Assembly: GCA_020635995.1 (NCBI GenBank)
Contig: JACJYS010000001.1
Location: 512,712 to 576,711, forward strand
Direction of reading: 5' to 3'
DNA length: 64,000 nt
Source of the DNA: Chitinophagales bacterium
GTDB lineage: Bacteria; Bacteroidota; Bacteroidia; Chitinophagales; UBA8649
The notes beneath the pieces are model-generated. The model was not told the DNA's origin. It worked only from the letters and a program-made list of their open reading frames with translations, and made no database searches. This document shows, piece after piece, positions 531 through 57,774 of this stretch; position 1 is the stretch's first letter; each line of letters opens with the position of its first letter. A program made the position numbers and the translations under genes.

Positions 531-960
531 TTAAAAACATATCACTCCGTTCTTCAAACAGTTTAATTTTTTACGGAGTTTTCGGTTAATGGGTACCCCG
601 CTTACAAACTTAAGGTGCACTTTTAACTGACCTTAATCAAAAATACGTTAGGAAATGATGTAAAACAGGCATCCAAAATGAATGAAATTATAAAACAATA
701 AACAGACAAATTAGTATGCTCCTTCAATTGAAAATACTTTAGTAAAACTGAAATTGAGCATACATTAATTTGTCATCGTCTGTTTTATGGCATTTTAGCA
801 TTTTTGATTACAGTCTTGATTTTTTGTTACTTTTGTATCAAGACAAAAGTAAAAGACTACGAGCTGTAACTCAAATTACTTAAACGTCCAAAAAATTCTA
901 TTTCAGAACATAATTTATTGGTATAAGACGGATGGTCATAAAACAAATAAAAATTTTTAA
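531..960 (+). repeat. copy A (5'-truncated) of a dispersed ~0.5-kb structured non-coding element
   Basis: Aligns by eye at roughly nine positions in ten with 43636-44037. Lacks the 5' module. Ends at the anmK ATG. Confidence 0.85.
803..835 (+). promoter_or_regulatory. candidate promoter inside repeat copy A (TTTG, 21-nt spacer, TACTTTTG), facing anmK
   Basis: Motif match only. The same arrangement is conserved in copy B (43901-43933, TACCTTTG). Confidence 0.35.
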
Positions 961-3831: not shown

Positions 3832-5673
3832 TTAATACCCCATATACCTATCAAAAACATACTGAAAATAAGCCCCACTTTTTAATAAGCAAGAGTCTGT
3901 TTCTTGGTATAAATTATTGGGAATTTCATAGTTGAGAAAACAAAAATTATCAGGTAGAATAAGATCGTGCCCATGTATATGAGTGAAAGTAGAAAACGGT
4001 GGACTGTATGGGCTAAAAATATCTTTGCTAAACTCAAAATATTGCTTTTTTAAACTCAGCTGTTTGCTTAGGCTATATGGTATATCCGTTTGATTAACTA
4101 ATTGTTCTGTTTTCTTTCCTTTAAATTCATTTTTAAGTGCATTGCCAAATAAGATAAAAGGTATATGAAACCGTTCTTTGTCATTGTACCAATAATCGCC
4201 AGGATATTTATGAGCATGGTCTGATGACAAAATAAACAAAGTATTATCAAACCACGGCATATTTTTGCACTGCTCATAAAAAACACCTAAGATACTATCC
4301 ACATATATTACGGCATTGTCGTAGCGTTTTATATCTTTATGTTCTCCTTCATTAAAAGGCATATCATAAGGTTCGTGAGTGGTTTGGGTTAGTACTAAGT
4401 TAAAAAAAGGCTCTTTAGCATTTTTAGTGTCTTCAATAAATTTGGCAAATAAAAATTCATCCGGAGCACCTAATTCTTGAGTAAGTTGCTCTTTAGGATA
4501 ATCTTGTAATCCATAAACTTTCCCAAAACCATTATATTTTAAAAAAGCTTTAAAACTGCCAAACTCAGGTTCTCCTGCAAAGAAAAAAGTATTAGTATAT
4601 CCTTCTTCTTTAAGTGCTAATGATAAGGAAGGTAAGTGCTGAAATTTTTCGGGTTGAGCTCCAATAGTATGAAAAGGCATAGCCGGAAATCCGCTAATTA
4701 TAGAAACCAAACCTTGGTCGGTACGCAAGCCCGAAGCGTACATTTGCTTAAATGTATAGCCTTCTTTTATAAAATTTTCAACATTTGGCATCAGCACGCC
4801 CCAGCTATTGTATTCTTTTATGCAGTTGGCATTTACGCCCTCTAAAGCAATGTATATAATATTCGGTCGCTTTATATTCAGTATATTTATTAAAGTATCC
4901 TTTTCTTGATGGTATAAATTTTTAAAAATTTCTTCGGCTTTGGCTTCATCCATTACTTTGTAAGGGTTTGTTTTTAAACTGTTGTTGTTTTGAAAAAGTA
5001 CATTTCCAAAATTCCAAAGCGAATTAACTCCAGCTACATTTAGCGTATTATCGTCAGAAAAATAAGCATCACTTTGGTTAATAGGTATTACTCTAAAACC
5101 ACCTCTTAATCCCAATATTGCCAAGCCACTTAACAATAAGAAAGCAGGGAGATATAAGTACCATTTTCTTGTGTTAATTTCTTGTTTTTTAATTAAAATT
5201 TTAAGCACTTTATAAGAGATATAAGTTAATACAATAGCTACTATAAAAAGTATTAAAACCTGCCATTTTCCGGCCGATTTTAGGGACATTAGTGGCGTAT
5301 TCAAATAAAATAGAGCCTTGGCACTTAGCTTAGAACTCCAATAAGAAAACAGCCTAATATCTATAAAGTTTATAGCTACTGCAATAAAAGAAACACAAGT
5401 AAAATAAGCTATTAAAAAAGGATGTAAGATGTTTTTTTTTATAAAAATTTGAATTAAAAAAACCGTTAATGGAAGGAGTGAGATATAACATACTACTGCA
5501 AAATCTATAGAAAAGCTATTAGTGAAAACCAACCATAGATTTTTGGCATCTTTATATCGTATATCATTAAAATTGACAAATAAAAAAAGTGCTTTTAAGA
5601 AAGCAAACAGCAATAAAAAGTAAATGGCAGGTTTTACAAAATAATTATAGATAGTTTTTAAAACTACTACCAT
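3832..5673 (-). CDS. LTA synthase / sulfatase-family phosphoglycerol transferase-like membrane protein
   Basis: 613 aa. Five N-terminal TM helices plus an extracytoplasmic alkaline-phosphatase-superfamily domain (TQTTHEPYDMP, SSDHAH). Confidence 0.8.
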   Translation of the reverse strand: MVVVLKTIYNYFVKPAIYFLLLFAFLKALFLFVNFNDIRYKDAKNLWLVFTNSFSIDFAVVCYISLLPLTVFLIQIFIKKNILHPFLIAYFTCVSFIAVAINFIDIRLFSYWSSKLSAKALFYLNTPLMSLKSAGKWQVLILFIVAIVLTYISYKVLKILIKKQEINTRKWYLYLPAFLLLSGLAILGLRGGFRVIPINQSDAYFSDDNTLNVAGVNSLWNFGNVLFQNNNSLKTNPYKVMDEAKAEEIFKNLYHQEKDTLINILNIKRPNIIYIALEGVNANCIKEYNSWGVLMPNVENFIKEGYTFKQMYASGLRTDQGLVSIISGFPAMPFHTIGAQPEKFQHLPSLSLALKEEGYTNTFFFAGEPEFGSFKAFLKYNGFGKVYGLQDYPKEQLTQELGAPDEFLFAKFIEDTKNAKEPFFNLVLTQTTHEPYDMPFNEGEHKDIKRYDNAVIYVDSILGVFYEQCKNMPWFDNTLFILSSDHAHKYPGDYWYNDKERFHIPFILFGNALKNEFKGKKTEQLVNQTDIPYSLSKQLSLKKQYFEFSKDIFSPYSPPFSTFTHIHGHDLILPDNFCFLNYEIPNNLYQETDSCLLKSGAYFQYVFDRYMGY

Positions 5674-8641: not shown

Positions 8642-8676
8642 TACTCGTGGCACGACTTGGAGTCGTGCCACGAGTA
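8642..8676. repeat. perfect 16-bp GC-rich hairpin (TACTCGTGGCACGACT tgg AGTCGTGCCACGAGTA)
   Basis: Read directly. Lies in a GC-rich intergenic island with two further hairpins (8705-8722 and 8725-8747). Confidence 0.8.
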
Positions 8677-8805: not shown

Positions 8806-8837
8806 AAAAATGCCCCGAAAAAAATCGGGGCATTTTT
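8806..8837. terminator. bidirectional intrinsic terminator (AAAAATGCCCCGA aaaaaa TCGGGGCATTTTT)
   Basis: GC-rich 8-bp stem flanked by A5 and T5. Lies 22 nt past the stop of the minus-strand T9SS cargo gene. Confidence 0.85.
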
Positions 8838-8858
8838 AAATAAGATATTTATTAAAAA

Positions 8859-11800
8859 TTACTTAACAATAACTCTTTTAGTTGTATAAGCACCTTCAGA
8901 AGAAATGTTGATGAAGTAAACTCCAGCAGCATTTTTATCTAAGTTAAATTCTACTATTTCTTTAGCATTAACATTAGTTAATTCTTTAGTAGCAATGGTA
9001 GTACCTATTACGTTAGTTATTTCTATTTTAATGTTATCGGCTTTAATATCAGCTATTTCTACATTCACTAATCCTTTAGTTGGGTTAGGATAAACAGAAA
9101 TAGAAGCATCTAATTCATTTCTATCAGCTATACCAGAAATAGTTACTGTTTTACATTCTTGCTGAGCTGTTTTATTAAATGGAGCGTCATTAAATCTATT
9201 TTTAGCTGTTAAACAAACCGTATAAGTTTGTCCCGCCATATATGTAGGAACACCAGGTGTAGAGTTTGGAGAAGTACTGGTTTGTCCATTTCCAAAATCC
9301 CACAAATATGAAGTTGGATTTCCTGTAGATGTGTTCGTTACAACAATACTATTAGATGTAGCAAAATATGTGAAATTTGGAGTTGGTTCAGTACCTACTC
9401 TAACTGTTAGGTTTTGGCTAGTACTATTTCCATTTTCATCTGTAGCAGTTACTACGGCAGTATAGTTTCCTGCTGTAGATGTGTTAACACTTGCATCATT
9501 AACAGTTACGTTTACAGTTTGACCACTACAGTTAGGGTCTGAAGCTGAAACTGAAGGAGCTACAAAGTTAGTGCCCACATAAGTATAGTTAACACCACCT
9601 TCTGTATAAGAATCGGCAGGAGTAACTAAGTCATTGTCATCTTCTACTGTTAATAATGGGGCGGTGTTATCTTCTACATAAACAGTTCTTGTAAACGTAG
9701 ATGTATTTGGAATAGGTGCATAGTCCGATGCAGTATAAGTTACAAGGTAACTACCTACAACATTTATATTTACAGCACTTGAATTTATAGTTACCGGCAC
9801 AGTATAATCTACTAAGTCAAAAGCGGTAGCACCTTGCTCATCGTAAGAGGTACAAACTTCTACAGAATCTGTAGCACCACCAGTTAACGTAATAATTGGA
9901 CCTTCTGTATCGTTAGAAATAATTTCTACATATCTAACTGCACTTGTTGAATTACCAGCATTATCTACTATTGTATATACATACGTAGCTAAACCTAAAC
10001 CTGTTGTTAAAGTAGGGTTAACATTGTCAGTTGTAGAAGGAGCAGCAGCAGGGTAGCAACCATTATCGTCATAGTTAATTCCCGGGTCAACATAAGTATC
10101 ACCAATAATAACCTGTAAAGTATCTGGTCCTATAAAAGTATATGTAGGTGGTGTATTATCCGGTGCTACGGTAACATTAATTTGAACAGTATCACTAACG
10201 TTTCCGGCATTATCTACTAAATATAAGTCATATAATCCGGAACCTGTAATAGAGCCTTGTACAAAGTTAACCATGTTTGTGTCTGGACCTTGAGGCACAT
10301 CATCAAAAACTAATATTTCTTCATAATCTTCAGCACTTGGATTACATCCTTGAGAAATAGTTAAATTATTAATACCTGGATCAAGTAATGCTAAAGTAGG
10401 GCAAGTTTCATCTAAAGGAGTAACTATGCTTGATAAAGGTATTTCATCATACATAATATCATTACTTAAATAAGGATGAGAGTAACCTGTAGGTGGTTGT
10501 AAAGCATTGCCTGGCAACGCATCTTGCATCCAAATTACAGGAATTGTGTTGTTATAAAATTTTCTTGGTAAACCAGGAAAAGCACATTCTAAAGTATCTT
10601 GGTTAGAAACATTAAATGGTCCTTCCCAAGTAGCACCACCGTCAGCAGATTTTAATAAATAAACATCTTTAAAGAAATAACCATCAGGAGATGCATTTAA
10701 TACTGAACTATCTAAAGGATCAATAATAGCGGTTCTCATTCTTGTATATGCTACTACTAAATTGCCGGCAGCATCATAAGATGCACTTGGTTGAGAAACT
10801 AAAGAAGATCTATATAAACCAAACTGAGTAAATTCAGGATCATTTATAACTGCACTTGTATATAAAGGATTACAGCCGGCATTTGCTTCTACTGTAAATC
10901 TTGAAGCATGTAAAATTACAGGCTCACTCATGCTTTCATTCCAATACATTAACCCTTCAGAAAAAGGATATACTGAACCGTCAGCATTAGGGTCATCTTT
11001 TAAATAATCTAAACGACCGGCCCAAACGTGAACATTATCATTATCGTCAACAATTACACTAAATGATTCATCTAAAATATCTTGTCTTTCTGCTGATTCT
11101 CCAGCTGCACCAGAGTAATTGTTAGCATTAGGATTGCCGTTGATATCTGTACTTCTTACTACGTCATGAGCCGTCCATGTTAAACCAAAATCTGTAGATT
11201 TTAGCATAAAAGTATTATATCTTCCTACTACAATAGCTACTGTTCCGTTTTGATTGGCATCTATGTCATAAACATCTCCACCTACATTTACAAAGTTGCT
11301 ACCATTTACAAATGGAATAAAAGACTGTGTCCATGTAGTTCCACCATCTGTAGAACGATGCATAAACATACCTCCGTCAACTCCGTTAACTAAAGTTCCT
11401 GTTTGTGCAGCACTAATTACTAAAATAGAATCGCCTGTTATAGCTACTCTTGGCCATGTGGCATCATCGGAAAATGAACCAGAAACGTTATTTGAGTTTA
11501 ATTCAGTAATATTCCACGCTGCACCAGAACCTAATGCTCTTTGCATAACTTGAATACCACCAAACGAAGCTGTGTTTCCAGCAAAGTGAGAAACAACAAT
11601 TTCATTTCCATTGTTTAAAATTCCAACGTTAGGCCAACCTGTTCTATCTAAGTCAGGTCTTTGATTGTTCCAGCCGTTTGTAGGTGCTGTTGTTGCAAAT
11701 GTTGGCTCAGACCAAACGCCAGAAGTGTTTTTGTAGTTGTAGCCTGTTCCACGGTCATCTGCCGCTTCTGAATATGTGTAACTTCTTGTGTAAGTTATTA

Positions 11801-11948: not shown

Positions 11949-12077
11949 ATTTTGTTTAATTATTAATAATGTTAATTCAGCCTCTAAAGTTACTAAAAAA
12001 ACAAAGACTTGCAATTTTTTTTACAACATTAATGTGTTAAAATGTAATAAGAAGTTAAAATTGACGGAAAAATGACT

Positions 12078-13955
12078 TTATTTTTTCTTTTTTTGTTGTT
12101 CTTGTATCTGTTGTTGCTGTTTATATATTTCTTCCATTTTAGCAGCAAAACCTGATTTTTTCTTAGGCTTTTTCTTGTTTTCTTGTATTTGTGCGTGCAA
12201 TTTATCTTCGTCAATAAAAAATTTATTGATAACAATTTGTTGCCCAAATGTTATCATGTTTGATAAGAAGTAATAGTACGTTAAAGCTGCCGGAAAATTG
12301 TTAAATAAAAACAACAAGAAAAATGGGAATATATATGGCATATATTTCATCATTTCCATGCCGGGCTGTGCCGGCTGCGATTGCATTTGAGGATTAAACC
12401 TTGCCATTAAAAGCGAAGATGCTGTCATTAGCAAAGTAAATATACTTAAATGATGCCCCAACAAAGGAATGCTTTTAGCCCATGTTAAAAATGGCACGGT
12501 ATCAAATGTAGATAAATCTTGTGCCCACAAGAAACTTTCTTGTCTTAACTCTATAGAAGAAGGGAAAAAGTAAAACATTGCCAGTAAAAACGGCATTTGT
12601 AATAACATAGGCAGGCAACCGCCAAACATACTTACTCCCGCCTTGCTGTACAGCTCCATTTGTGCTCTTGAATAGCCCGCAGAATCGTCCTTGTATTTTT
12701 CTTTTAGCTCTTCCAGCTCTGGTTTTAAAAGCTTGGTTTTAGCCATTGAAACATAAGATTTTAATGTTAAAGGCATTAATAAAAGCTTTATTATTAAAGT
12801 CATTATTAAAATAATGATACCATAGTTGGGTATAAATTTTTCTAAGAAATTAAATAGCGGAATAATTAACCATGCGTTTATCCATTTAACCCATCTAAAT
12901 AAAAAGAAATCGGCACTTAAATCTACTATGTTTTGCATGCCGTTTTTCATTTTCTTTAATAAACGGTAGTCATTTGGTCCATAATATAATTGTAGTGCAT
13001 ATTCTGAACTTGAGTTTTCAACGGTTACAGGCATGTTTATTTTGCCATCAAAATGGGCTACCACAGTAGTGTCATTATTATCTATGTTAGAAGCTACATC
13101 TATATTGTTAAATAATGATGCATTGTTTAAAAGTGTAACGTTAAAAAAACGTTGTCTAAAACTCAACCATTTAGATTTACTTTCTACTTTTTCATCTTTA
13201 GAACGTCCTATGGCTAAATGGCTAACTTTATCATCTTCGGTTTTCCAAAAAGCAGTAGATTTTTGCTTTTCACTTTTAATATCTTGCTCGTGTATTTGGG
13301 TGCTTAATTGCCAGTTTAAAGCTATATTTTGTGTGTTAGAACTTAGCTCGCTATTTAAGTTTTTAAAATTGACATTATAATCTACTAAATAAGATTCAGG
13401 AGCAAGTGTATAGTTTATTTCTATTGATTTTCCATTGCCTAAAGGTGTTGAAAATACTACTGAATTTCCATTTTGTTTAGCGGTAAAATATAAATCTTTA
13501 GTTTGTATTTTATTGCCCGTTTTTGTATCAAAAGCATAGTTTATTTCTTGCGAATTTTCTACAAGCATTAAAGGGTTTTGGCTAAAATCTTTAAACTTTT
13601 TTAATTCTACTTCTTTTACTTGAGCTCCTTTAGAACTTAATACTACTTTTAGTAGCTCATTTTCTATGCTAAAAGTTTCTTCGTTTCCGGTAGAGTATTG
13701 AGCAAAATCGCCAAACTGATTGCTTAGTTTTTGATTTTCTAAAAAGGCTTTTGTAGAATCTGATATAGTATCTGAATATTGTACGGTTTCTTCAAGAGTA
13801 GTATCTACAGCGGTAGAATCTGTTTGTTCAGTATTAGTTGTGGTAGTATCATTGGTTTGTTTTTCCGGAGCACATGTTCTTAACATTATGATGTACACCA
13901 AAATACTAATCAAAATAATACCTATGTATTGTCCTTTCCCTTCGTTCATTGACAA
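12078..13955 (-). CDS. yidC: membrane protein insertase YidC
   Basis: 625 aa. N-terminal TM, a large periplasmic domain, then the conserved 5-TM core (GIIILIMTLIIKLLLMPL). Q/K-rich tail. Confidence 0.9.
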   Translation of the reverse strand: MSMNEGKGQYIGIILISILVYIIMLRTCAPEKQTNDTTTTNTEQTDSTAVDTTLEETVQYSDTISDSTKAFLENQKLSNQFGDFAQYSTGNEETFSIENELLKVVLSSKGAQVKEVELKKFKDFSQNPLMLVENSQEINYAFDTKTGNKIQTKDLYFTAKQNGNSVVFSTPLGNGKSIEINYTLAPESYLVDYNVNFKNLNSELSSNTQNIALNWQLSTQIHEQDIKSEKQKSTAFWKTEDDKVSHLAIGRSKDEKVESKSKWLSFRQRFFNVTLLNNASLFNNIDVASNIDNNDTTVVAHFDGKINMPVTVENSSSEYALQLYYGPNDYRLLKKMKNGMQNIVDLSADFFLFRWVKWINAWLIIPLFNFLEKFIPNYGIIILIMTLIIKLLLMPLTLKSYVSMAKTKLLKPELEELKEKYKDDSAGYSRAQMELYSKAGVSMFGGCLPMLLQMPFLLAMFYFFPSSIELRQESFLWAQDLSTFDTVPFLTWAKSIPLLGHHLSIFTLLMTASSLLMARFNPQMQSQPAQPGMEMMKYMPYIFPFFLLFLFNNFPAALTYYYFLSNMITFGQQIVINKFFIDEDKLHAQIQENKKKPKKKSGFAAKMEEIYKQQQQIQEQQKKKK

Positions 13956-14072: not shown

Positions 14073-15419
14073 TTAAAAAATACCTACATAGTTGCTGGGA
14101 GAAATGGCTTTTAACTCTTTTTTTAAATTATCGTTAATTTTTAAAGCATCTATAAAAGCATGAATTTCTTGTTTTCCTACTTTTTGGTTTGTTCTTGTTA
14201 AATCTCTCAGCTGCTCATAAGGATTAGGTATGCCTTCTCTTCTAAGTACAGTTTGTATAGCTTCGGCTACTACCAGCCAGTTTTGTTCTAAATCATCGGC
14301 TATTTTAGCTTTGTTTATCAGTAATTTATCTAAACCTTTAAGTATGGCTTGCAGGGCTATTTGAGTATGAGCTATAGGTACGCCTATATTTCTAAGCACA
14401 GTAGAATCGGTTAAATCTCTTTGCAAACGAGATATAGGAAGCTTGCTTGATAAATGCTGGTATAAAGCATTGGCAATACCTAAATTTCCTTCTGCATTTT
14501 CAAAATCTATAGGATTTACTTTATGAGGCATGGCAGATGAGCCTACTTCTCCTTTTTTAATTTTTTGTTTAAAATAATCCATAGAAATATACGTCCATAT
14601 ATCTCTACAAAAATCTATTAGTATGGTATTTATTCTTTTAGAAGCGTCAAAATAAGCCGCCAAAAAATCGTAATGTTCTATTTGAGTAGTGTATTGGTAG
14701 CGGTATAAACCTAAGCGTTCCTCTACAAAATTATTGGCAAAATCTGTCCAGTTTTTATTGGGATAAGCTACGTGGTGGGCATTAAAATTTCCTGTAGCTC
14801 CACCAAATTTAGCCGCTATGGGCAGTTCAGAAATAATGTCAATTTGATTAACCAATCTCTCTACAAAAACCATAATTTCTTTTCCCAATTTTGTAGGGCT
14901 TGCCGGTTGCCCGTGTGTGCGTGCCAGCATGGGAATATCCATCCATTCGTTTGCTATTTCTTGCAAAGTATCTGTAAGTTCTTTTAGTTTGGGCAACATA
15001 ACTTTTTCATCGGCATTTCTTAGCATTAAAGGGAAAGCAGTATTATTTATGTCTTGAGAAGTTAAGCCAAAATGAATAAATTCTTTAAAATCGGACAAAC
15101 CAAGTGCATCAAATTTTTCTTTTATAAAATACTCCACGGCTTTAACATCATGATTAGTTATTTTTTCTGTGGCTTTAATTTTTTCGGCATCTTGCAAACC
15201 AAAATTTTCGTAAATACTTTTAACCGCTTTTGCTTTAGCTTTTGGAAAATTTTTAAGCTGTGGAATATTAAAATCTATAAGTGCTAAAAAGTACTCTATT
15301 TCTACTACTACACGATATTTTATTAGTGCAAATTCAGAAAAATAATCGGCAAGTTGGTTAGTTTTATTTTGGTATCTGCCATCTATAGGAGATATGGCTG
15401 TGAGAGCTGAAAATTCCAT
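14073..15419 (-). CDS. purB: adenylosuccinate lyase
   Basis: 448 aa. Fumarate-lyase signature GSSAMPHKVNP and the N-terminal SPIDGRY motif. Confidence 0.92.
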   Translation of the reverse strand: MEFSALTAISPIDGRYQNKTNQLADYFSEFALIKYRVVVEIEYFLALIDFNIPQLKNFPKAKAKAVKSIYENFGLQDAEKIKATEKITNHDVKAVEYFIKEKFDALGLSDFKEFIHFGLTSQDINNTAFPLMLRNADEKVMLPKLKELTDTLQEIANEWMDIPMLARTHGQPASPTKLGKEIMVFVERLVNQIDIISELPIAAKFGGATGNFNAHHVAYPNKNWTDFANNFVEERLGLYRYQYTTQIEHYDFLAAYFDASKRINTILIDFCRDIWTYISMDYFKQKIKKGEVGSSAMPHKVNPIDFENAEGNLGIANALYQHLSSKLPISRLQRDLTDSTVLRNIGVPIAHTQIALQAILKGLDKLLINKAKIADDLEQNWLVVAEAIQTVLRREGIPNPYEQLRDLTRTNQKVGKQEIHAFIDALKINDNLKKELKAISPSNYVGIF

Positions 15420-15566
15420 TGAGTATTTTAAATTTTAGCACAAAAATAGTGTTTTAAAGAACTAAAACTGGTGTAAAATTTGTTAGAAATTAAATAATTA
15501 TCATAATAATTTTAAAAAGTAAAATTACATTTGTTGAAAATTTTGCAATAATAAACCATCAAAAGC

Positions 15567-17897
15567 ATGTCTAAAAAGCTCGTAATAGTAGAGTCTCCTT
15601 CAAAAGCTAAAACCATTCAAAAATATTTGGGTAATGATTATATAATTGAATCTTCTTACGGTCATGTAAGAGATTTGCCTAAAAAAGATATATCTATAGA
15701 TATAGAAAACAACTTTAAACCAAAATATGTTGTAAGCAACGATAAAAAAGAAGTTGTAAAAAAATTAAAGAAATTAGCCAAAGAAGTAGATGAAGTGCTG
15801 TTAGCTACGGATGAAGACCGTGAGGGAGAAGCTATTTCGTGGCATTTGTGCGAAATTTTAGGATTAAACCCTGAAGATGCAAAGAGAATTACATACACCG
15901 AAGTAACAAAAGATGCTATTGTTAGAGCTATTCAAAATCCCAGAAAATTAAATATGGGATTGGTAAATGCTCAGCAGGCAAGAAGAGTTTTAGACAGAAT
16001 AGTAGGTTACGAACTTTCGCCTGTTTTATGGAAAAAAGTAAAGCCGTCATTATCGGCAGGTAGAGTGCAGTCTGTAGCTGTGCGTATAATAGTAGAGAGA
16101 GAAAGAGAAATTACCAATTTTACTACAGAAAATTATTTTAATGTATCTGCTCAATTTGTTGTGTTAGATAAAAAAGGCAATAAATCAATATTATATGCAA
16201 AATTGCCTGAAAAACTGCAAACTGAAAAAGAGGTAGAAGACTTTTTAGAAGCTTGCAAAAAAGGAAAATTTAGTATAGCAGATATTGAGAAAAAACCTTC
16301 GTTTAGAAATCCTTCAGCTCCGTTTATAACTTCTACTTTGCAGCAAGAAGCAAGTAGAAAATTGAGCTTTTCGGTAAGTAAAACCATGTCGGTAGCACAG
16401 CAACTGTATGAAGAAGGGCATATAACTTATATGAGAACAGATTCTGTAACACTGTCTCAAACCGCCATAAGCCAAGCAGCAGCTATAATAGAAAGTAATT
16501 ATGGCAAAGAGTATGTAAATACCCGACAGTTTACCACTAAAAATAAAGATGCACAAGAAGCTCACGAAGCTATACGACCTACAAATTTTGCAAGTGATAA
16601 AGCCGGAACAACAAGCGACCAAAAACGCCTTTACGATTTAATATGGAAAAGAGCTATTGCTTCGCAAATGGCAAAAGCTAAATTAGAAAGAACCATTGTT
16701 TCTGTTAAAGCCGATACTACTTCTAAAATTTTTGAAGCAAAGGGAGAAGTACTTTTATTTGACGGATTTTTAAAAGTATATTTAGAAGGAAAAGATGATG
16801 GCGATGAAGAGGAAGAAATGGACGGCATATTGCCTCCAATAAGTGTAGGGCAGGAGCTTGGTTTAAAACAAATACAAGGTGTAGAGCGTTTTACCCGACC
16901 AGGAGCAAGATATACCGAAGCCAGTTTAGTAAAAAAATTAGAAGAATTAGGTATAGGACGACCTTCAACTTACGCTCCTACTATTTCTACTATTCAAAAA
17001 AGAAATTATATAGAAAAAACAAGCAGAGAAGGAGAGGAAAGAAAATATAGAGTGCTTACGCTTGAAAATGATAAAATTTCTGCTAAAACTGAAACAGAAA
17101 TAACAGGAGCAGAAAACAATAAACTTTTTCCTACCGATATAGGAATGGTAGTTAATGACTTTTTAATAGAACATTTTAAAGACATTATGGACTACGATTT
17201 CACGGCACAAATGGAGCAATCTTTTGATAATATAGAAGAAGGAAAAACCAAATGGAGTGCTATGGTTTCTAAATTTTATAAGCCATTTCACGATAATGTA
17301 GAAAAAACCTTAGAAGAAGCCGATAGAGCTTCGGGAGAAAGAATATTAGGCACTCATCCTCAAAATGGAAGAACCGTGTTAGTGCGTGTAGGTCGCTATG
17401 GACCAATGGCACAAATAGGCACACCGGAAGATGAAGAAAAACCTGAATTTGCAAAACTTTTGCCTACTCAAAGTATAGAAACCATTACTTTAGAAGAAGC
17501 ATTGGAGTTGTTTAAATTGCCAAGAGATTTAGGCGAGTTTGAAGGAAAAGTAATAAAAGCTTCAATTGGCAGATTTGGACCGTATGTTTTGCATAACAAA
17601 GTGTTTGTTTCTATACCAAAGGCAAGTGGGTTAGACCCAAATACTATAAATGTGCAAGAAGCCGTAGAACTGATAAAAGCAAAACGTGAAGCAGATGCCA
17701 ATAAATTTATAATGGCATTTGAAGAAGAAGATATTCAGGTGCTAAATGGAAGATGGGGACCTTATATTAAAAAAGGAAAACAAAATTTTAAAATTCCTAA
17801 AGGTGTAGAAGCAGAAAAATTGACTTTAGAAAAAGTAAATGAAATAATAGCTAATCAACCGCAAAAGAAAAGAGGCGGAAGAGCAAGGAAGAAGTAG
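15567..17897 (+). CDS. topA: DNA topoisomerase I
   Basis: 776 aa. TOPRIM N-terminus LVIVESPSKAKTIQKYLG and the catalytic-Tyr region ITYMRTDS. Basic C-terminal tail. Confidence 0.93.
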   Translation: MSKKLVIVESPSKAKTIQKYLGNDYIIESSYGHVRDLPKKDISIDIENNFKPKYVVSNDKKEVVKKLKKLAKEVDEVLLATDEDREGEAISWHLCEILGLNPEDAKRITYTEVTKDAIVRAIQNPRKLNMGLVNAQQARRVLDRIVGYELSPVLWKKVKPSLSAGRVQSVAVRIIVEREREITNFTTENYFNVSAQFVVLDKKGNKSILYAKLPEKLQTEKEVEDFLEACKKGKFSIADIEKKPSFRNPSAPFITSTLQQEASRKLSFSVSKTMSVAQQLYEEGHITYMRTDSVTLSQTAISQAAAIIESNYGKEYVNTRQFTTKNKDAQEAHEAIRPTNFASDKAGTTSDQKRLYDLIWKRAIASQMAKAKLERTIVSVKADTTSKIFEAKGEVLLFDGFLKVYLEGKDDGDEEEEMDGILPPISVGQELGLKQIQGVERFTRPGARYTEASLVKKLEELGIGRPSTYAPTISTIQKRNYIEKTSREGEERKYRVLTLENDKISAKTETEITGAENNKLFPTDIGMVVNDFLIEHFKDIMDYDFTAQMEQSFDNIEEGKTKWSAMVSKFYKPFHDNVEKTLEEADRASGERILGTHPQNGRTVLVRVGRYGPMAQIGTPEDEEKPEFAKLLPTQSIETITLEEALELFKLPRDLGEFEGKVIKASIGRFGPYVLHNKVFVSIPKASGLDPNTINVQEAVELIKAKREADANKFIMAFEEEDIQVLNGRWGPYIKKGKQNFKIPKGVEAEKLTLEKVNEIIANQPQKKRGGRARKK

Positions 17898-42484: not shown

Positions 42485-43408
42485 TTATGAAAATTCTAAC
42501 ATTCTTTGAATAGGTACTAATGCTTTTTTTATTACTTTTTTAGGTACGGTAATTTGTGGTGTTTCATATTTTAAGCAATCATAAAGCTTTTGCATTGTAT
42601 TCATTTTCATGTATTTACACTCACTGCAAGCACAAGTATTATTTTCAAATGAAGGAGCTGGTATTAGTTTAGAATTAGGAACTTCTTTTTGCATTTTATG
42701 CAAAATACCTGCTTCAGTGGCTACTATATAATTTTCATTAGGGTGCGATTTTACATAGTTTATCATACCGGCAGTAGAACCAACATAGGTTGCTAATTGA
42801 AGCACAGGCTCTTCCGATTCCGGGTGAGCAATAATAATATGTTCGGGATTTTCTTCTTTAAGTTTATGTAGTTTTTCTAACGAAAAAGCTTCATGAACCA
42901 TACAACTTCCGTCCCAAATAAGCATTTTTCTTCCTGTTAGTTTTTCTATATATTTTCCAAGATTTTTATCGGGAGCAAATATAATTGGTTTGTCTTCCGG
43001 AATAGATTGTACTATTTTTAAAGCATTGGAAGATGTGCAAATAATATCGCTAAGTGCTTTAACTTCTGCTGAGCAATTAACATAAGTGATGACAAGGTGG
43101 TCAGGGTGTTCTTTAGTAAATTTCTCAAATTTATCTGGCGGACAAGAATCGGCAAGAGAGCAACCTGCGTTTAAATCGGGCAATAATACTTTTTTATTGG
43201 GATTTAAAATTTTAGCTGTTTCAGCCATAAAATGTACTCCTGCAAACACAATGGTTTCAGCATCCGTTTCCGCTGCTTTTTGCGAAAGTCCTAAACTGTC
43301 GTCTACATAATCGGCAATATCTTGTATTTCAGGTACTTGATAATAATGTGCTAATATGATAGCATTTTTTTCTTTTTTTAAAAGCTTGATTTCTTTTTTG
43401 ATGTCCAT
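42485..43408 (-). CDS. nadA: quinolinate synthase
   Basis: 307 aa. ILAHYYQ, GVHFMAETAKIL and Cys ligands in the expected spacing. Confidence 0.92.
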   Translation of the reverse strand: MDIKKEIKLLKKEKNAIILAHYYQVPEIQDIADYVDDSLGLSQKAAETDAETIVFAGVHFMAETAKILNPNKKVLLPDLNAGCSLADSCPPDKFEKFTKEHPDHLVITYVNCSAEVKALSDIICTSSNALKIVQSIPEDKPIIFAPDKNLGKYIEKLTGRKMLIWDGSCMVHEAFSLEKLHKLKEENPEHIIIAHPESEEPVLQLATYVGSTAGMINYVKSHPNENYIVATEAGILHKMQKEVPNSKLIPAPSFENNTCACSECKYMKMNTMQKLYDCLKYETPQITVPKKVIKKALVPIQRMLEFS

Positions 43409-43516
43409 TTTTAGAATAATTTATTTATAGATGTATATAAATAGAACAAATAACGGACACAAATATCTTAAATAAAACTGATAAACCTGTTTTTAGGTAT
43501 AAAAAAAGAGGACTTT

Positions 43517-44037
43517 AATACTAATTGTTTTTGTAAAAGGAATTTGGGATTCCGTATAAATTTTTCCGTTTCACTACAAAATTTTAGGATGACGCCCCCG
43601 ATATGATGATTTTTTTGAACTTTTAGTTCAAAAAAATCATCTCTCCGTTCTTCAAACAGTTTAATTTTTTACGGAGTTTTCGCTTAATGAGTGCCCCACT
43701 TGCAAACTTAAGGTGCACTTTTAACTGACCTTAATCAAAAATACGTTAAGAAATGATGTAAAACAGACATCAAAAATGAATGGAATTATAAAACAGTAAA
43801 CAGACAAATTAGTATGCTCCTAAAAATAAAAATACTTTAGGAAGACTGAAATTGAGCATACATTAATTTGTCCTCGTTTGTTTTATAGCATTTTAGTGTT
43901 TTTGATTACAGTCTTGACCTTTGGTTACCTTTGTGTCAAGACAAAGGTAAAAGGAATACAAAGTGTAACTAAAATTACTTAAACGTCCTAAAATACTATC
44001 TTTAAGTATAAAGAATTGGTGTAAAACAATTTTTAAT
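43517..44037 (+). repeat. copy B (full length) of the dispersed structured non-coding element
   Basis: Shares 43517-43767 with the reverse complement of 57303-57560, and 43636-44037 with 531-960. Contains six or more strong stems and no conserved long ORF. Confidence 0.85.
43546..43594 (+). repeat. decayed REP-like unit GGG-ATTCCGTA...TAGGAT-GACG inside repeat copy B
   Basis: Counterpart of the perfect unit at 57477-57527. Confidence 0.6.
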
Positions 44038-44043
44038 ATTGAA

Positions 44044-45282
44044 CTACATTTCTATTTCTATCATATTCCTTGTTATGTCCTCCATATCTTCGCGTTTGCG
44101 TATTAAATGGTCTTGCCCATTATAAATAAGCACTTCTGCGGGTCTAAAACGCGAGTTGTAATTGCTTGCCATACTCATACCGTAAGCACCGGCATTATGA
44201 AAAGCTATAATATCGCCTTCATTAACTTCTGCTATTTTTCGGTCGGGAGCCATTGTGTCGCTTTCGCAAATATAGCCCACTACAGAATATATACGCTCTA
44301 TACCTTGTGGGTAGGTTACATTGCTAATTTCATGGTGGGCATTGTATAATTTAGGGCGAAGCAAATGATTCATTCCTGTATCTAAACCTACAAATACCGT
44401 AGCGGTGGTTTGTTTTACTACATTTACTTTAGCTATAAAAATACCGGATTCACTAACTAAATATTTTCCGGGTTCAAAAAATAAATCTAATTCTTTGCCG
44501 TAGTTTTTACAAAATTCATTAAATCTTTTGTTTATTTTTTTACCTAATTCATTTACATCTGTAGTAATATCATCATGCCAATAAGAAACTTTAAAACCAC
44601 TTCCTAAATCTATAAAATCTAAATCGGGAAAATCTTGGGCAATATCAAATAAAATTTCTGCTCCACGTATAAACACATCAACATCTAAAATATCGCTACC
44701 CGTGTGCATGTGCAGTCCTCTTACTTTTAGTTTTGTGTGTTCTACTATTCTCATTACATGACGAAGCTGATGTATAGAAATACCAAATTTAGAGTCAATA
44801 TGTCCTGTACTAATTTCGTAATGCCCACCTGCCATTATATGAGGGTTTATTCTTATGCACACAGGAATAGTATTGCCATATTCATGCCCAAACTGTTCAA
44901 GCAAAGGAATATTATCTATGTTAATGATAACACCTTTTTCTACAGCCATTTTAACTTCGGCTAAAGAAACACAGTTGGGCGTGTATATAATTTCTTCCGG
45001 TTTAAAACCGGCTTTTAATCCTAAAAGCACTTCTTGGTAAGAAACGGTATCTAATCCTGCTCCTGCTTTTTTTAAAAGTTTAAGTACATTAATATTACTT
45101 AGAGCTTTTGCGGCATATTTTATCTTAGTGTTTTTATTAAAAGCTTTTTTTAGCTTATTGTATTGATTAACAATAACATTGGCATCATAAATATAAAGTG
45201 GTGTGCCGTATTTTTCGGCTAAATCGGTAATTTTTATTCCACCAAAATAACTTTCGTTGTTTTTAACTTCTATCTGTGTCAT
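44044..45282 (-). CDS. lysA: diaminopimelate decarboxylase
   Basis: 412 aa. Has TPLYIYD, the YAAKA PLP-Lys region, HMHTGS and GAYGMSMASNYN. Confidence 0.92.
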   Translation of the reverse strand: MTQIEVKNNESYFGGIKITDLAEKYGTPLYIYDANVIVNQYNKLKKAFNKNTKIKYAAKALSNINVLKLLKKAGAGLDTVSYQEVLLGLKAGFKPEEIIYTPNCVSLAEVKMAVEKGVIINIDNIPLLEQFGHEYGNTIPVCIRINPHIMAGGHYEISTGHIDSKFGISIHQLRHVMRIVEHTKLKVRGLHMHTGSDILDVDVFIRGAEILFDIAQDFPDLDFIDLGSGFKVSYWHDDITTDVNELGKKINKRFNEFCKNYGKELDLFFEPGKYLVSESGIFIAKVNVVKQTTATVFVGLDTGMNHLLRPKLYNAHHEISNVTYPQGIERIYSVVGYICESDTMAPDRKIAEVNEGDIIAFHNAGAYGMSMASNYNSRFRPAEVLIYNGQDHLIRKREDMEDITRNMIEIEM

Positions 45283-57302: not shown

Positions 57303-57560
57303 TCTGTTATTACATCATTTCTTAACGTATTTTTGATTAAGGTCAGTTAAAAGTGCACCTTAAGTTTGCAAGTGGGGCACCCATTAACCGAAAACTCCGT
57401 AAAAAATTAAACTGTTTGAAGAACGGAGTGATGATTTTTTTGAACTAAAAGTTCAAAAAAATCATCACATTAGGGGCGTCATTCCATAAAATTTTGTAGT
57501 GAAACGGAAAAATTTATATGGAATCCCAAATTCCTTTTACGGAAACAATTATTAAATTGA
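57303..57560 (-). repeat. copy C (3'-truncated, inverted) of the dispersed structured non-coding element
   Basis: The reverse complement is near-identical to 43517-43767. Ends about 88 nt upstream of the TonB-dependent receptor start, in the same orientation as that gene. Confidence 0.85.
57477..57527 (-). repeat. REP-like hairpin unit GGG-ATTCCATA...TATGGAAT-GACG inside repeat copy C
   Basis: 8-bp perfect arms with family flanks. Confidence 0.8.
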
Positions 57561-57774
57561 TGTTCCGAACACCTGTGAGATTTTAATGGGTCGCTGAAAA
57601 CTTAGTGCGATTCCCTGACTGCCGTCACCTGTCTACCGTAGAGGTAGAGGCAAGTTTTGTAACTTTTCTTTAGAAGAAAAGTTAATGTAAAATACTTCAT
57701 AGGTATCTTTACAGATAGTTATAAAAATATTATATTAAAAAAACAATATGATAATATTTATGTAACAGAGTAGG

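Follow-up and report, generated by a model that had tools for sequence, protein, structure and literature searches.

A composite, hairpin-dense intergenic repeat of a Chitinophagales lineage is arranged around a covarying structured unit found across Bacteroidota

What kind of sequence separates nadA from lysA in the genome of a Chitinophagales bacterium? The stretch in question (positions 43517-44037 of a 64,000-nt piece of contig JACJYS010000001.1, assembly GCA_020635995.1, hereafter the window) lies between the nadA start (43408) and the lysA stop (44044), both genes being on the minus strand. It was originally predicted, from its letters alone, to be a structured RNA or a mobile element present in three modular copies. 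The broad terms of this prediction stand – the stretch is non-coding, hairpin-dense and multi-copy, part of it covaries, and no mobility gene lies nearby – but the picture of three modules has had to be revised. We argue, with about an even chance of being right, that the stretch is an intergenic repeat belonging to a single Chitinophagales lineage, composite, non-autonomous and present in several copies, and that it is built around a structured unit which occurs across Bacteroidota and acts as a folded single strand. The window itself has a G+C content of 32.7% and carries genes that mark Bacteroidota (among them type IX secretion system (T9SS) sorting domains, PorP/SprF and SusC-like receptors, from Pfam searches of the open reading frames (ORFs)); its LysA is 100% identical to proteins from a metagenome-assembled genome (MAG) named "Chitinophagales bacterium".

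Comparison of 43401-44060 with the window by blastn confirms the three copies, here called A, B (the full one, 43519-44027, beside lysA) and C. Copy A (533-929) corresponds to 43630-44027 of B with 87.5% identity over 399 nt (E = 5e-139) and has the same orientation, 43 kb away; copy C (57554-57300) is inverted and corresponds to 43519-43770 of B with 94.1% identity over 255 nt (E = 1e-109). An all-against-all blastn of the window gave no other dispersed repeat in the 64 kb, and no further copy is present in the 9.6 kb plus 2.6 kb of new sequence gained by walking outward from the window. Relative to shuffled sequences, the 512-nt element folds with z = -6.6 and -6.4 on its two strands (0 of 100 shuffles equal), and all of the predicted stems are found where they had been placed, including the palindrome at 43605-43641, the 17-bp stem with its 9-bp extension and the stems at 43911-43950. 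Substitutions between A and B in the loop (CTTCAATTG vs. CTAAAAATA) leave the arms identical, as had been claimed. The hairpins within the element are mutually dissimilar and only the 5' module is REP-like (REP, repetitive extragenic palindrome), resembling, by eye only, common GTCATCCTGAGCG..GTAGTCGAAGG-type sequences of Bacteroidota. The parts of the three copies are:

43519-43604, plus strand: 5' module of copy B, a REP-like stretch with small hairpins, common to C only (B/C homology from ~43519)
43605-43641, no strand assigned: 37-nt palindrome of copy B, GATGATTTTTTTGAACT-TTT-AGTTCAAAAAAATCATC (17+3+17), matching itself in inverted orientation over 37 nt; copy A starts immediately 3' of here, where its flank diverges
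43642-43731, plus strand: lineage-specific 'core' of copy B with stems CTCCGT/ACGGAG and TTAAGGT/ACCTTAA, present in A, B and C and nearly invariant among them
43732-43955, plus strand: structured unit of copy B, a member of the Bacteroidota-wide family (match to covariance model R2, 5' motif, minimum free energy (MFE) fold)
43909-43917, plus strand: single-stranded motif CAGTCTTGA, invariant in all units but for T/C at one position, able to pair with the hexaloop of the hairpin that follows, as helix vi-a (43911-18 with 43935-42)
43925-43950, plus strand: terminal 10-bp hairpin vi-b, TTACCTTTGT / GTCAAG loop / ACAAAGGTAA, with compensatory pairs
43956-44027, plus strand: 3' tail of copy B, of lower identity to A (A/B alignment ends at ~44027/929)
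544-633, plus strand: core part of copy A, without 5' module and palindrome (alignment to B, end of contig L079)
634-857, plus strand: structured unit of copy A (R2 match), with CAGTCTTGA at 811-819 and the terminal hairpin at 827-852
858-929, plus strand: 3' tail of copy A (A/B alignment)
57306-57554, minus strand: copy C, 3'-truncated (blastn 94% to B 43519-43770), comprising 5' module 57554-57469, palindrome 57468-57428 (self-match), core, and 5' arm of the closing helix 57339-57306

The structured unit is the part that links the window to other genomes. R2, a covariance model built without the window copies, matches B at 43829-43954 (51.8 bits, E ~8e-10) and A at 731-856 (51.4 bits, E ~1e-9). 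Both copies carry the terminal signature of the family – CAGYCTTGA, 6 nt, and a 10-bp hairpin with an RTCAAG loop (43909-43950 and 811-852) – and B has in addition the long closing helix that runs from TT(G/A)CGTTAA(G/A)AAAT to ATTTTAG(C/T)AA just before the motif. This helix pairs 43732-43766 with 43876-43909 and encloses the 17-bp stem (43803-19/43854-72); AAAAATACGTTAAGAAATG (43737-55) is paired with CATTTTAGTGTTTTT (43889-43904) just before CAGTCTTGA, and the 12-mer ACGTTAAGAAAT of the 5' motif (43743-54) is identical in units L142b and L142d. The MFE fold of 43732-43955 alone gives closing helix, inner stem and terminal hairpin; R2 itself picked a nearer, weaker closing partner in the window copies. 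The position of the unit also changes the reading of the 'core' (43636-43767) that had been taken as common to all three copies: it is indeed common and nearly invariant, but it is not the functional heart, covariation and relatives being located at 43732-43955, with an overlap of only 35 nt. Since the unit begins at 43732, the earlier core is mostly lineage-specific (43642-43731), and neither this segment nor the 3' tail (43956-44027) has relatives in any other fetched locus.

The borders of A and C tell a similar story. Copy A has its left border at 543/544, directly past the position of the palindrome, and a contig of the same species (L079) ends exactly there. The alignment of C to B stops 35 nt inside the unit, within the closing helix and at no module border; C thus keeps one arm of that helix and is 3'-truncated. 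That A lacks the 5' module and C the 3' part, as originally described, is correct, but these are better read as truncated composite copies than as freely shuffled modules: the modular pattern would arise because truncation and deletion acted on a composite of separate elements.

Twenty-one units were aligned in all, including the two of the window. The overlapping stems at 43911-43950 matched an intergenic region of L084 (E 1e-11; also L085), which is another Chitinophagales MAG; a degenerate pattern derived from the window and L084/L085 led to further copies in IMG/VR, a covariance model of the terminal motif to more copies within the same contigs, and a profile of a spurious motif-encoded peptide to further loci. 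Read 5' to 3', a unit consists of TT(G/A)CGTTAA(G/A)AAAT, which opens the closing helix, purine-rich internal loops, a freely covarying inner helix, an apical helix CUGUU/AGC(G)AG with a nearly invariant U-G wobble that closes a UGAGCG-type loop, the end of the closing helix (ATTTTAG(C/T)AA), an 8-12-nt T-rich linker, CAGYCTTGA, 6 nt (YYTTTKG), and the 10-bp hairpin with its RTCAAG loop.

Base pairing rather than sequence is what these units conserve in their helices. RNAalifold on the full unit predicts 44 pairs, 30 of which show compensatory changes. For the terminal motif, six of 16 pairs are changed on both sides and none on one side only; 99.1% of cells are paired, vs. ~50% in slid controls, and 0 of 500 shuffles equal the score. 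Within the terminal hairpin vi-b half of the pairs (5/10) carry double compensatory changes, 98.6% of cells being paired (slid controls again ~50%). The hexaloop is complementary to CYTTGA of the motif, and the variable pair 43918/43935 changes in step (of seven sequences, three have C..G and the other four T..A); the exception to this loop-to-motif covariation is L142c. Between A and B a compensatory change from C-G to T-A affects both overlapping terminal helices, whose energies are -9.6 (vi-a) vs. -12.3 (vi-b) kcal/mol in B and -8.6 vs. -8.9 in A. Because some nucleotides belong to both helices and neither is much the more stable, they are best read as alternative states or as a compact pseudoknot, like the loop-loop complexes in which all of a hexaloop is paired.

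Which strand folds is indicated by the wobble pairs. The long hairpin contains 38 G-U cells against 2 A-C/C-A cells (and 13 G-A/A-G cells) in an alignment that was fitted to the model, which leans to G-U, and in which one conserved column (9/10 seed sequences) gives a large share of the G-U pairs. The 38:2 asymmetry, which would not be expected if both DNA strands used the structure equally, implies that the folded strand is the one carrying CAGTCTTGA, and the folded form is most likely RNA. No canonical Bacteroidetes promoter, that is, no conserved TAnnTTTG, is present directly upstream of the units examined. Ideas about initiation and termination were discarded: TACCTTTG/TACTTTTG in the terminal hairpin is preceded by a TTG at a distance of 21 nt in A and B, but the other units do not retain the motif; the direction of other TAnnTTTG motifs in the core relative to the genes is inconsistent across A, B and C; and, against a terminator, the terminal hairpin lacks a following U-tract on both strands. 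From this lack of signals, together with the position of units inside operons or a few nt from genes, we infer that they are transcribed by read-through.

The genomic settings of the units are diverse. One unit (L089 2565-2715) lies in sense orientation between csc2 (Cas7d) and csc1 of a type I-D CRISPR-Cas operon, and its open frame continues into the downstream gene. Others occur in four related phage-like head modules (L088, L097, L128 and L134-L141), whose contigs hold three to four units each, all on one strand whatever the orientation of the genes. In L128 a unit is found between a 332-aa gene and the capsid gene; the homologous module of L097 has a 27-nt spacer at this place. A Bacteroidales-like chromosome segment with a capsule locus (L142) has four units in 7 kb, arranged as two divergent inverted pairs: 3951-4108 (minus) with 4853-5009 (plus), and 8832-8989 (minus) with 10005-10161 (plus). 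The inverted similarity of these pairs runs ~100 nt further inward, the enclosed segments measure 0.74 and 1.0 kb (one with a DUF6169 gene), and the outer ends lie 5-6 nt past the terminal hairpin; L143 (1-478) has a similar divergent inverted pair enclosing ~230 nt.

The head modules themselves comprise small and large terminase, a Mu-like portal, capsid E, cement protein and M15 peptidase, without tail genes, and adjoin defence-type genes (MmeI-like methylase, SIR2, DUF87). The compact head-only module of L134-L141, L088, L097 and L128 looks like a capsid-forming satellite of Bacteroidota. Small insertions were also seen within units: a 15-nt G+C-rich palindrome, TCCCGAAGCTTCGGG, directly after CAGTCTTG in the unit of one strain (L085 3639-3653), and similar small G+C-rich hairpins in the loop of a unit of L134 (3273-3373).

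Assemblies of the same species bear on how widely the composite is repeated. Four independent assemblies, with flanks 98-100% identical to the window, end at element borders: L002 stops 41 nt upstream of nadA; L078, L079 and L080 stop 38-97 nt past the cytochrome c gene, L079 exactly at window position 543, the start of copy A; L073 stops inside copy B; and L144 stops within the hairpin-rich stretch beside copy C. One better assembly, L077, runs right through copy B (98.5% identity). Such breaks in short-read assemblies are what a genome-wide repeat produces: judged from these contigs, the composite is probably a repeat of the whole genome and is stable among strains. No orthologous empty site at lysA was found among relatives with 79-90% identical LysA, because these carry other genes downstream of lysA.

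The last ~60 nt of L073 form a further variant. At site B the 5' part of this contig end (11619-11676, GCA_041392355.1) reads GATGCTTCTTCCGCTCCGCTTCATCAGCATGACGCTCC instead, the stretch from one T-run to another is deleted, and the downstream part matches copy A at several positions; it may be a recombinant copy or a chimeric contig end. Its 5' stretch resembles sequence beside a RAYT-like gene (RAYT, REP-associated tyrosine transposase) in L075, a related genus, which we regard as a lead only. The gene in question (L075 15850-16950) encodes a 181-aa Y1 (IS200-like/RAYT-like) transposase; two 32-nt REPs in inverted orientation flank it, as does a 55-nt direct repeat, and the 32-nt stretch that resembles the variant 5' module of L073 is nearby.

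Taken together, we favor the following mechanism, to which we assign an even chance. Lineage-specific pieces (the REP-like stretch, the 37-nt palindrome, the 90-nt core and the 72-nt tail) would have become joined to one independent unit of ~160-225 nt. The unit would fold, as the strand with CAGTCTTGA, into a long irregular hairpin, unpaired CAGYCUUGA and a 10-bp hairpin with a complementary RUCAAG hexaloop, existing in two nearly iso-energetic states or as a compact pseudoknot; its RNA would be made by read-through from neighboring transcription. Most likely it would spread as selfish DNA via an enzyme encoded elsewhere, and A and C would be truncated derivatives of a B-like composite, truncation and deletion occurring at palindromes and short repeats. 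Mobility is indirectly suggested by the many copies per region (L142, L134), the differing sites in head modules, the unit in a cas operon and the spread across orders; there may also be effects on neighboring genes. As predicted, neither the window ORFs (Pfam) nor the gene tables of conspecific contigs include a transposase or integrase gene, and the same is true of reverse transcriptase genes.

Besides the leaning of the alignment towards G-U pairs, several observations weigh against this explanation. The terminal hairpin, with 207/210 Watson-Crick and only 2/210 G-U cells, fits a hairpin formed at the level of DNA as well. Copy B is antisense to both neighboring genes, so that read-through there yields the complement of the folded strand. 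Inside their long hairpin the window copies lack the conserved apical motif CUGUUUGAGCG..AGCGAGUU; there, as in L084, 17-bp stems with unrelated loops are found, with only a weak resemblance, CTGAAATTGAGCA. Because their interior differs from the family consensus, we treat the window copies and L084 as divergent members. Exact k-mers of two core sequences gave chance matches only (GTDB species representatives 1, JGI metagenomes 70, IMG/VR 0). Finally, the borders examined show neither a target-site duplication nor terminal inverted repeats, and comparison yielded no empty/filled pair at nucleotide resolution. A 9-nt match, AATTGTTTT/AAAACAATT, is present at the ends of B only, is not kept in A or C, and accompanies no duplication at any border.

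The unit family appears to be new, whereas dispersed structured intergenic repeats are a kind already known. In keeping with the original prediction, which had matched the element to no tRNA, tmRNA, RNase P, SRP, 6S RNA or riboswitch, Rfam 15 at gathering thresholds gave 0 matches in the window, L084, L088 and L089, and its E-value mode gave only chance-level matches of miRNA/snoRNA type (window element, L128, L097, L142). A six-frame concatenated pseudo-protein of the element had no match among 5.8 billion proteins, the unit had none by blastn among PLSDB plasmids and INPHARED phages, and literature searches by topic, nucleotide strings and peptide strings returned nothing relevant.

Of the alternatives, the one that survives best, although we consider it unlikely, is that the unit represents a structured RNA of a new class, with a biochemical role of its own. 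It would act in trans as a stand-alone molecule and be spread by phage-like islands: a regulatory small RNA, a ribozyme, a conformational switch, or an RNA that serves as a scaffold for proteins or as the guide of an enzyme of mobile islands. Its single strand would pseudoknot with the 3' hexaloop or alternate with the hairpin, and Bacteroidota chromosomes would have the unit in common with tail-less, capsid-encoding phage-like islands. The window repeats would then be a divergent local form, that is, divergent or decaying gene copies. A conserved apical loop closed by covarying helices, the invariant U-G wobble, the purine-rich internal loops, the strand-to-loop complementarity and the strong one-strand bias are all what such an RNA would lead one to expect, and a multi-copy small RNA family that also occurs in phage is known in Bacteroides (FopS; PMC11697453). 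It is the missing TAnnTTTG and U-tract, the units inside an operon (csc2-csc1) or a few nt from neighboring genes, the window copies without the apical motif and the absence of a matching Rfam family that argue against it.

A doubtful possibility, less probable still, is that the unit forms the end of a larger transposon whose ends are long and inverted; the window copies would then be solo or rearranged ends. The divergent inverted pairs of L142, with their ~100 nt of inward similarity and outer ends just past the terminal hairpin, and the like pair of L143 would suit such an arrangement. However, there is no transposase between the L142 pairs and no target-site duplication; the phage-like contigs have unpaired units on one strand; and A and B lie 43 kb apart in the same orientation. 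Moreover, transposase binding sites are expected to keep their sequence, not to covary as helices.

Far less probable is the speculative proposal made in the original prediction, namely an IS200/IS605-type palindrome-associated element with an omega-RNA-like guide scaffold, moved by a Y1 transposase encoded elsewhere. Folding is specific to one strand, the units of phage-like contigs share one strand, the element ends a few nt from a hairpin, and a Y1 transposase gene does exist in the related genus (L075). That gene, the only one for a Y1 transposase that was encountered, is however RAYT-like and flanked by unrelated REPs; no tnpA, tnpB or iscB was found in the window or beside the units examined, and nothing matches HEARO or any other Rfam family. 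Both orientations occur within 7 kb of L142, contrary to the strand bias expected, and the element has neither a conserved 4-5-nt target at its left end nor matched hairpins at its two ends. The proposal is therefore not upheld.

That the unit encodes a small protein, such as a type I toxin-like hydrophobic peptide whose translation is controlled by RNA structure, is hardly credible, and we reject it together with a type I toxin-antitoxin reading: the GTC TTG A frame is open for 30-100 codons in most units (..LFERSEF..FSxxFAVLIFCFFCIKTKE..) and 38 such ORFs are called hypothetical proteins in public data, but there is no conserved start codon (in A even the best open frame lacks one, in agreement with the original claim that no long ORF is conserved), conserved CTGTTTGAGCG is read in two frames across units, A vs. 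B shows 8 replacements, 3 synonymous changes and one frameshift, GTC TTG never varies at its wobble positions, the residue past the conserved K varies (T/E/R/K) in step with its base-pairing partner codon, the hydrophobic run measures only ~10 residues in the Bacteroidales units, reverse-strand frames are also long, and the 38 called ORFs are the only ones among 5.8 billion clusters.

Some further hairpins and repeats were noted in passing. The spacer adjoining copy C (57560-57700, plus strand) holds a further hairpin-rich stretch with REP-like GATTCCCTGACTGCCGTCACCTGTCTACCGTAGAGGTAGAGG. The hairpin AACTTTTCTT-TAG-AAGAAAAGTT in it (57662-57684) resembles variant terminal hairpins of units in L097 and L134 (a weak model match, 20.6 bits), and a Logan contig of the same species ends at ~57683. 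Near-perfect isolated palindromes occur at 52238-52270 (33 nt, 97%) and 8642-8676 (35 nt, 91%); the former is probably a bidirectional terminator because it lies between convergent genes (ends 52233 and 52291). In L084 the structured unit of that genome is bracketed by a different repeat, ..TCGACTGTTTTTCTAGTTAACTAGTAAACTAGTCATCTAATTTTC.., with five copies in 21 kb (11699-11757, 12031-12126, 13661-13787, 15339-15454 and 15727-15842); downstream of its first copy, the sequence of the conspecific L086 differs from that of L084.

Structured repeats that are dispersed through a genome influence operon expression, cause assemblies to break and serve as marks of mobile DNA, and very few have been described for Bacteroidota. 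The present family, for which a working covariance model is now available, has unusually clear covariation and one-strand specificity, and its members are found in Chitinophagales, in Bacteroidales-like contigs, in phage-like head-gene islands and in a CRISPR-Cas operon. Should the unit be a functional RNA, or the recognition structure of a mobility system, it would offer a direct way to identify that system; should it be selfish DNA only, it would still explain the fragmentation of MAGs at these sites in the lineage.

How does the element compare with known systems? Within Bacteroidota, FopS/GibS are likewise a multi-copy non-coding family that is also present in phage (PMC11697453). FopS RNAs of Bacteroides measure 65-70 nt, consist of a single-stranded seed and a Rho-independent terminator, have a canonical promoter each and are in Rfam (PMC11697453). 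FopS/GibS are excluded as the identity of the unit. The unit described here, at 160-225 nt, has no evident promoter or terminator and no Rfam match.

Palindrome-associated elements of the IS200/IS605 type and the omega-RNAs of TnpB/IscB are non-autonomous, with single-strand hairpins near their ends and a structured scaffold of 150-300 nt. Our element is likewise non-autonomous and has single-strand-specific hairpins near its end; unlike them, it has no associated tnpA/tnpB/iscB, HEARO match or conserved flanking target, and its units occur in mixed orientations within 7 kb. Enterobacterial repetitive intergenic consensus sequences (ERIC, or intergenic repeat units, IRU) and Correia elements (Correia repeat enclosed elements, CREE) are imperfect intergenic palindromes of 100-200 nt that are co-transcribed, form long hairpin RNAs and are polymorphic for presence between related genomes; those of the Correia type are bounded by terminal inverted repeats with a TA duplication. 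The present element is likewise dispersed, intergenic and able to form a long hairpin, whereas no such ends as those of Correia elements were found and the unit is asymmetric (hairpin plus 3' motif), with G-U pairs specific to one strand.

A further comparison is with the bacterial interspersed mosaic elements (BIMEs) of enterobacteria, in which REP sequences alternate with other short motifs, and the BOX elements (boxA-boxB-boxC) of Streptococcus pneumoniae. Both lie between genes, carry none themselves, are present in many copies and combine short palindromic modules; they occur in either orientation, inside operons, and are co-transcribed with neighboring mRNAs. Like these, our element is an intergenic, gene-less, multi-copy composite with palindromic modules in varying combinations. 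It differs in that its modules are not one REP repeated and the window has no RAYT, in that the unit is common to orders of Bacteroidota and to phage-like islands, and in that one module, of 160-225 nt, combines a long covarying hairpin and conserved loops with complementarity between loop and strand.

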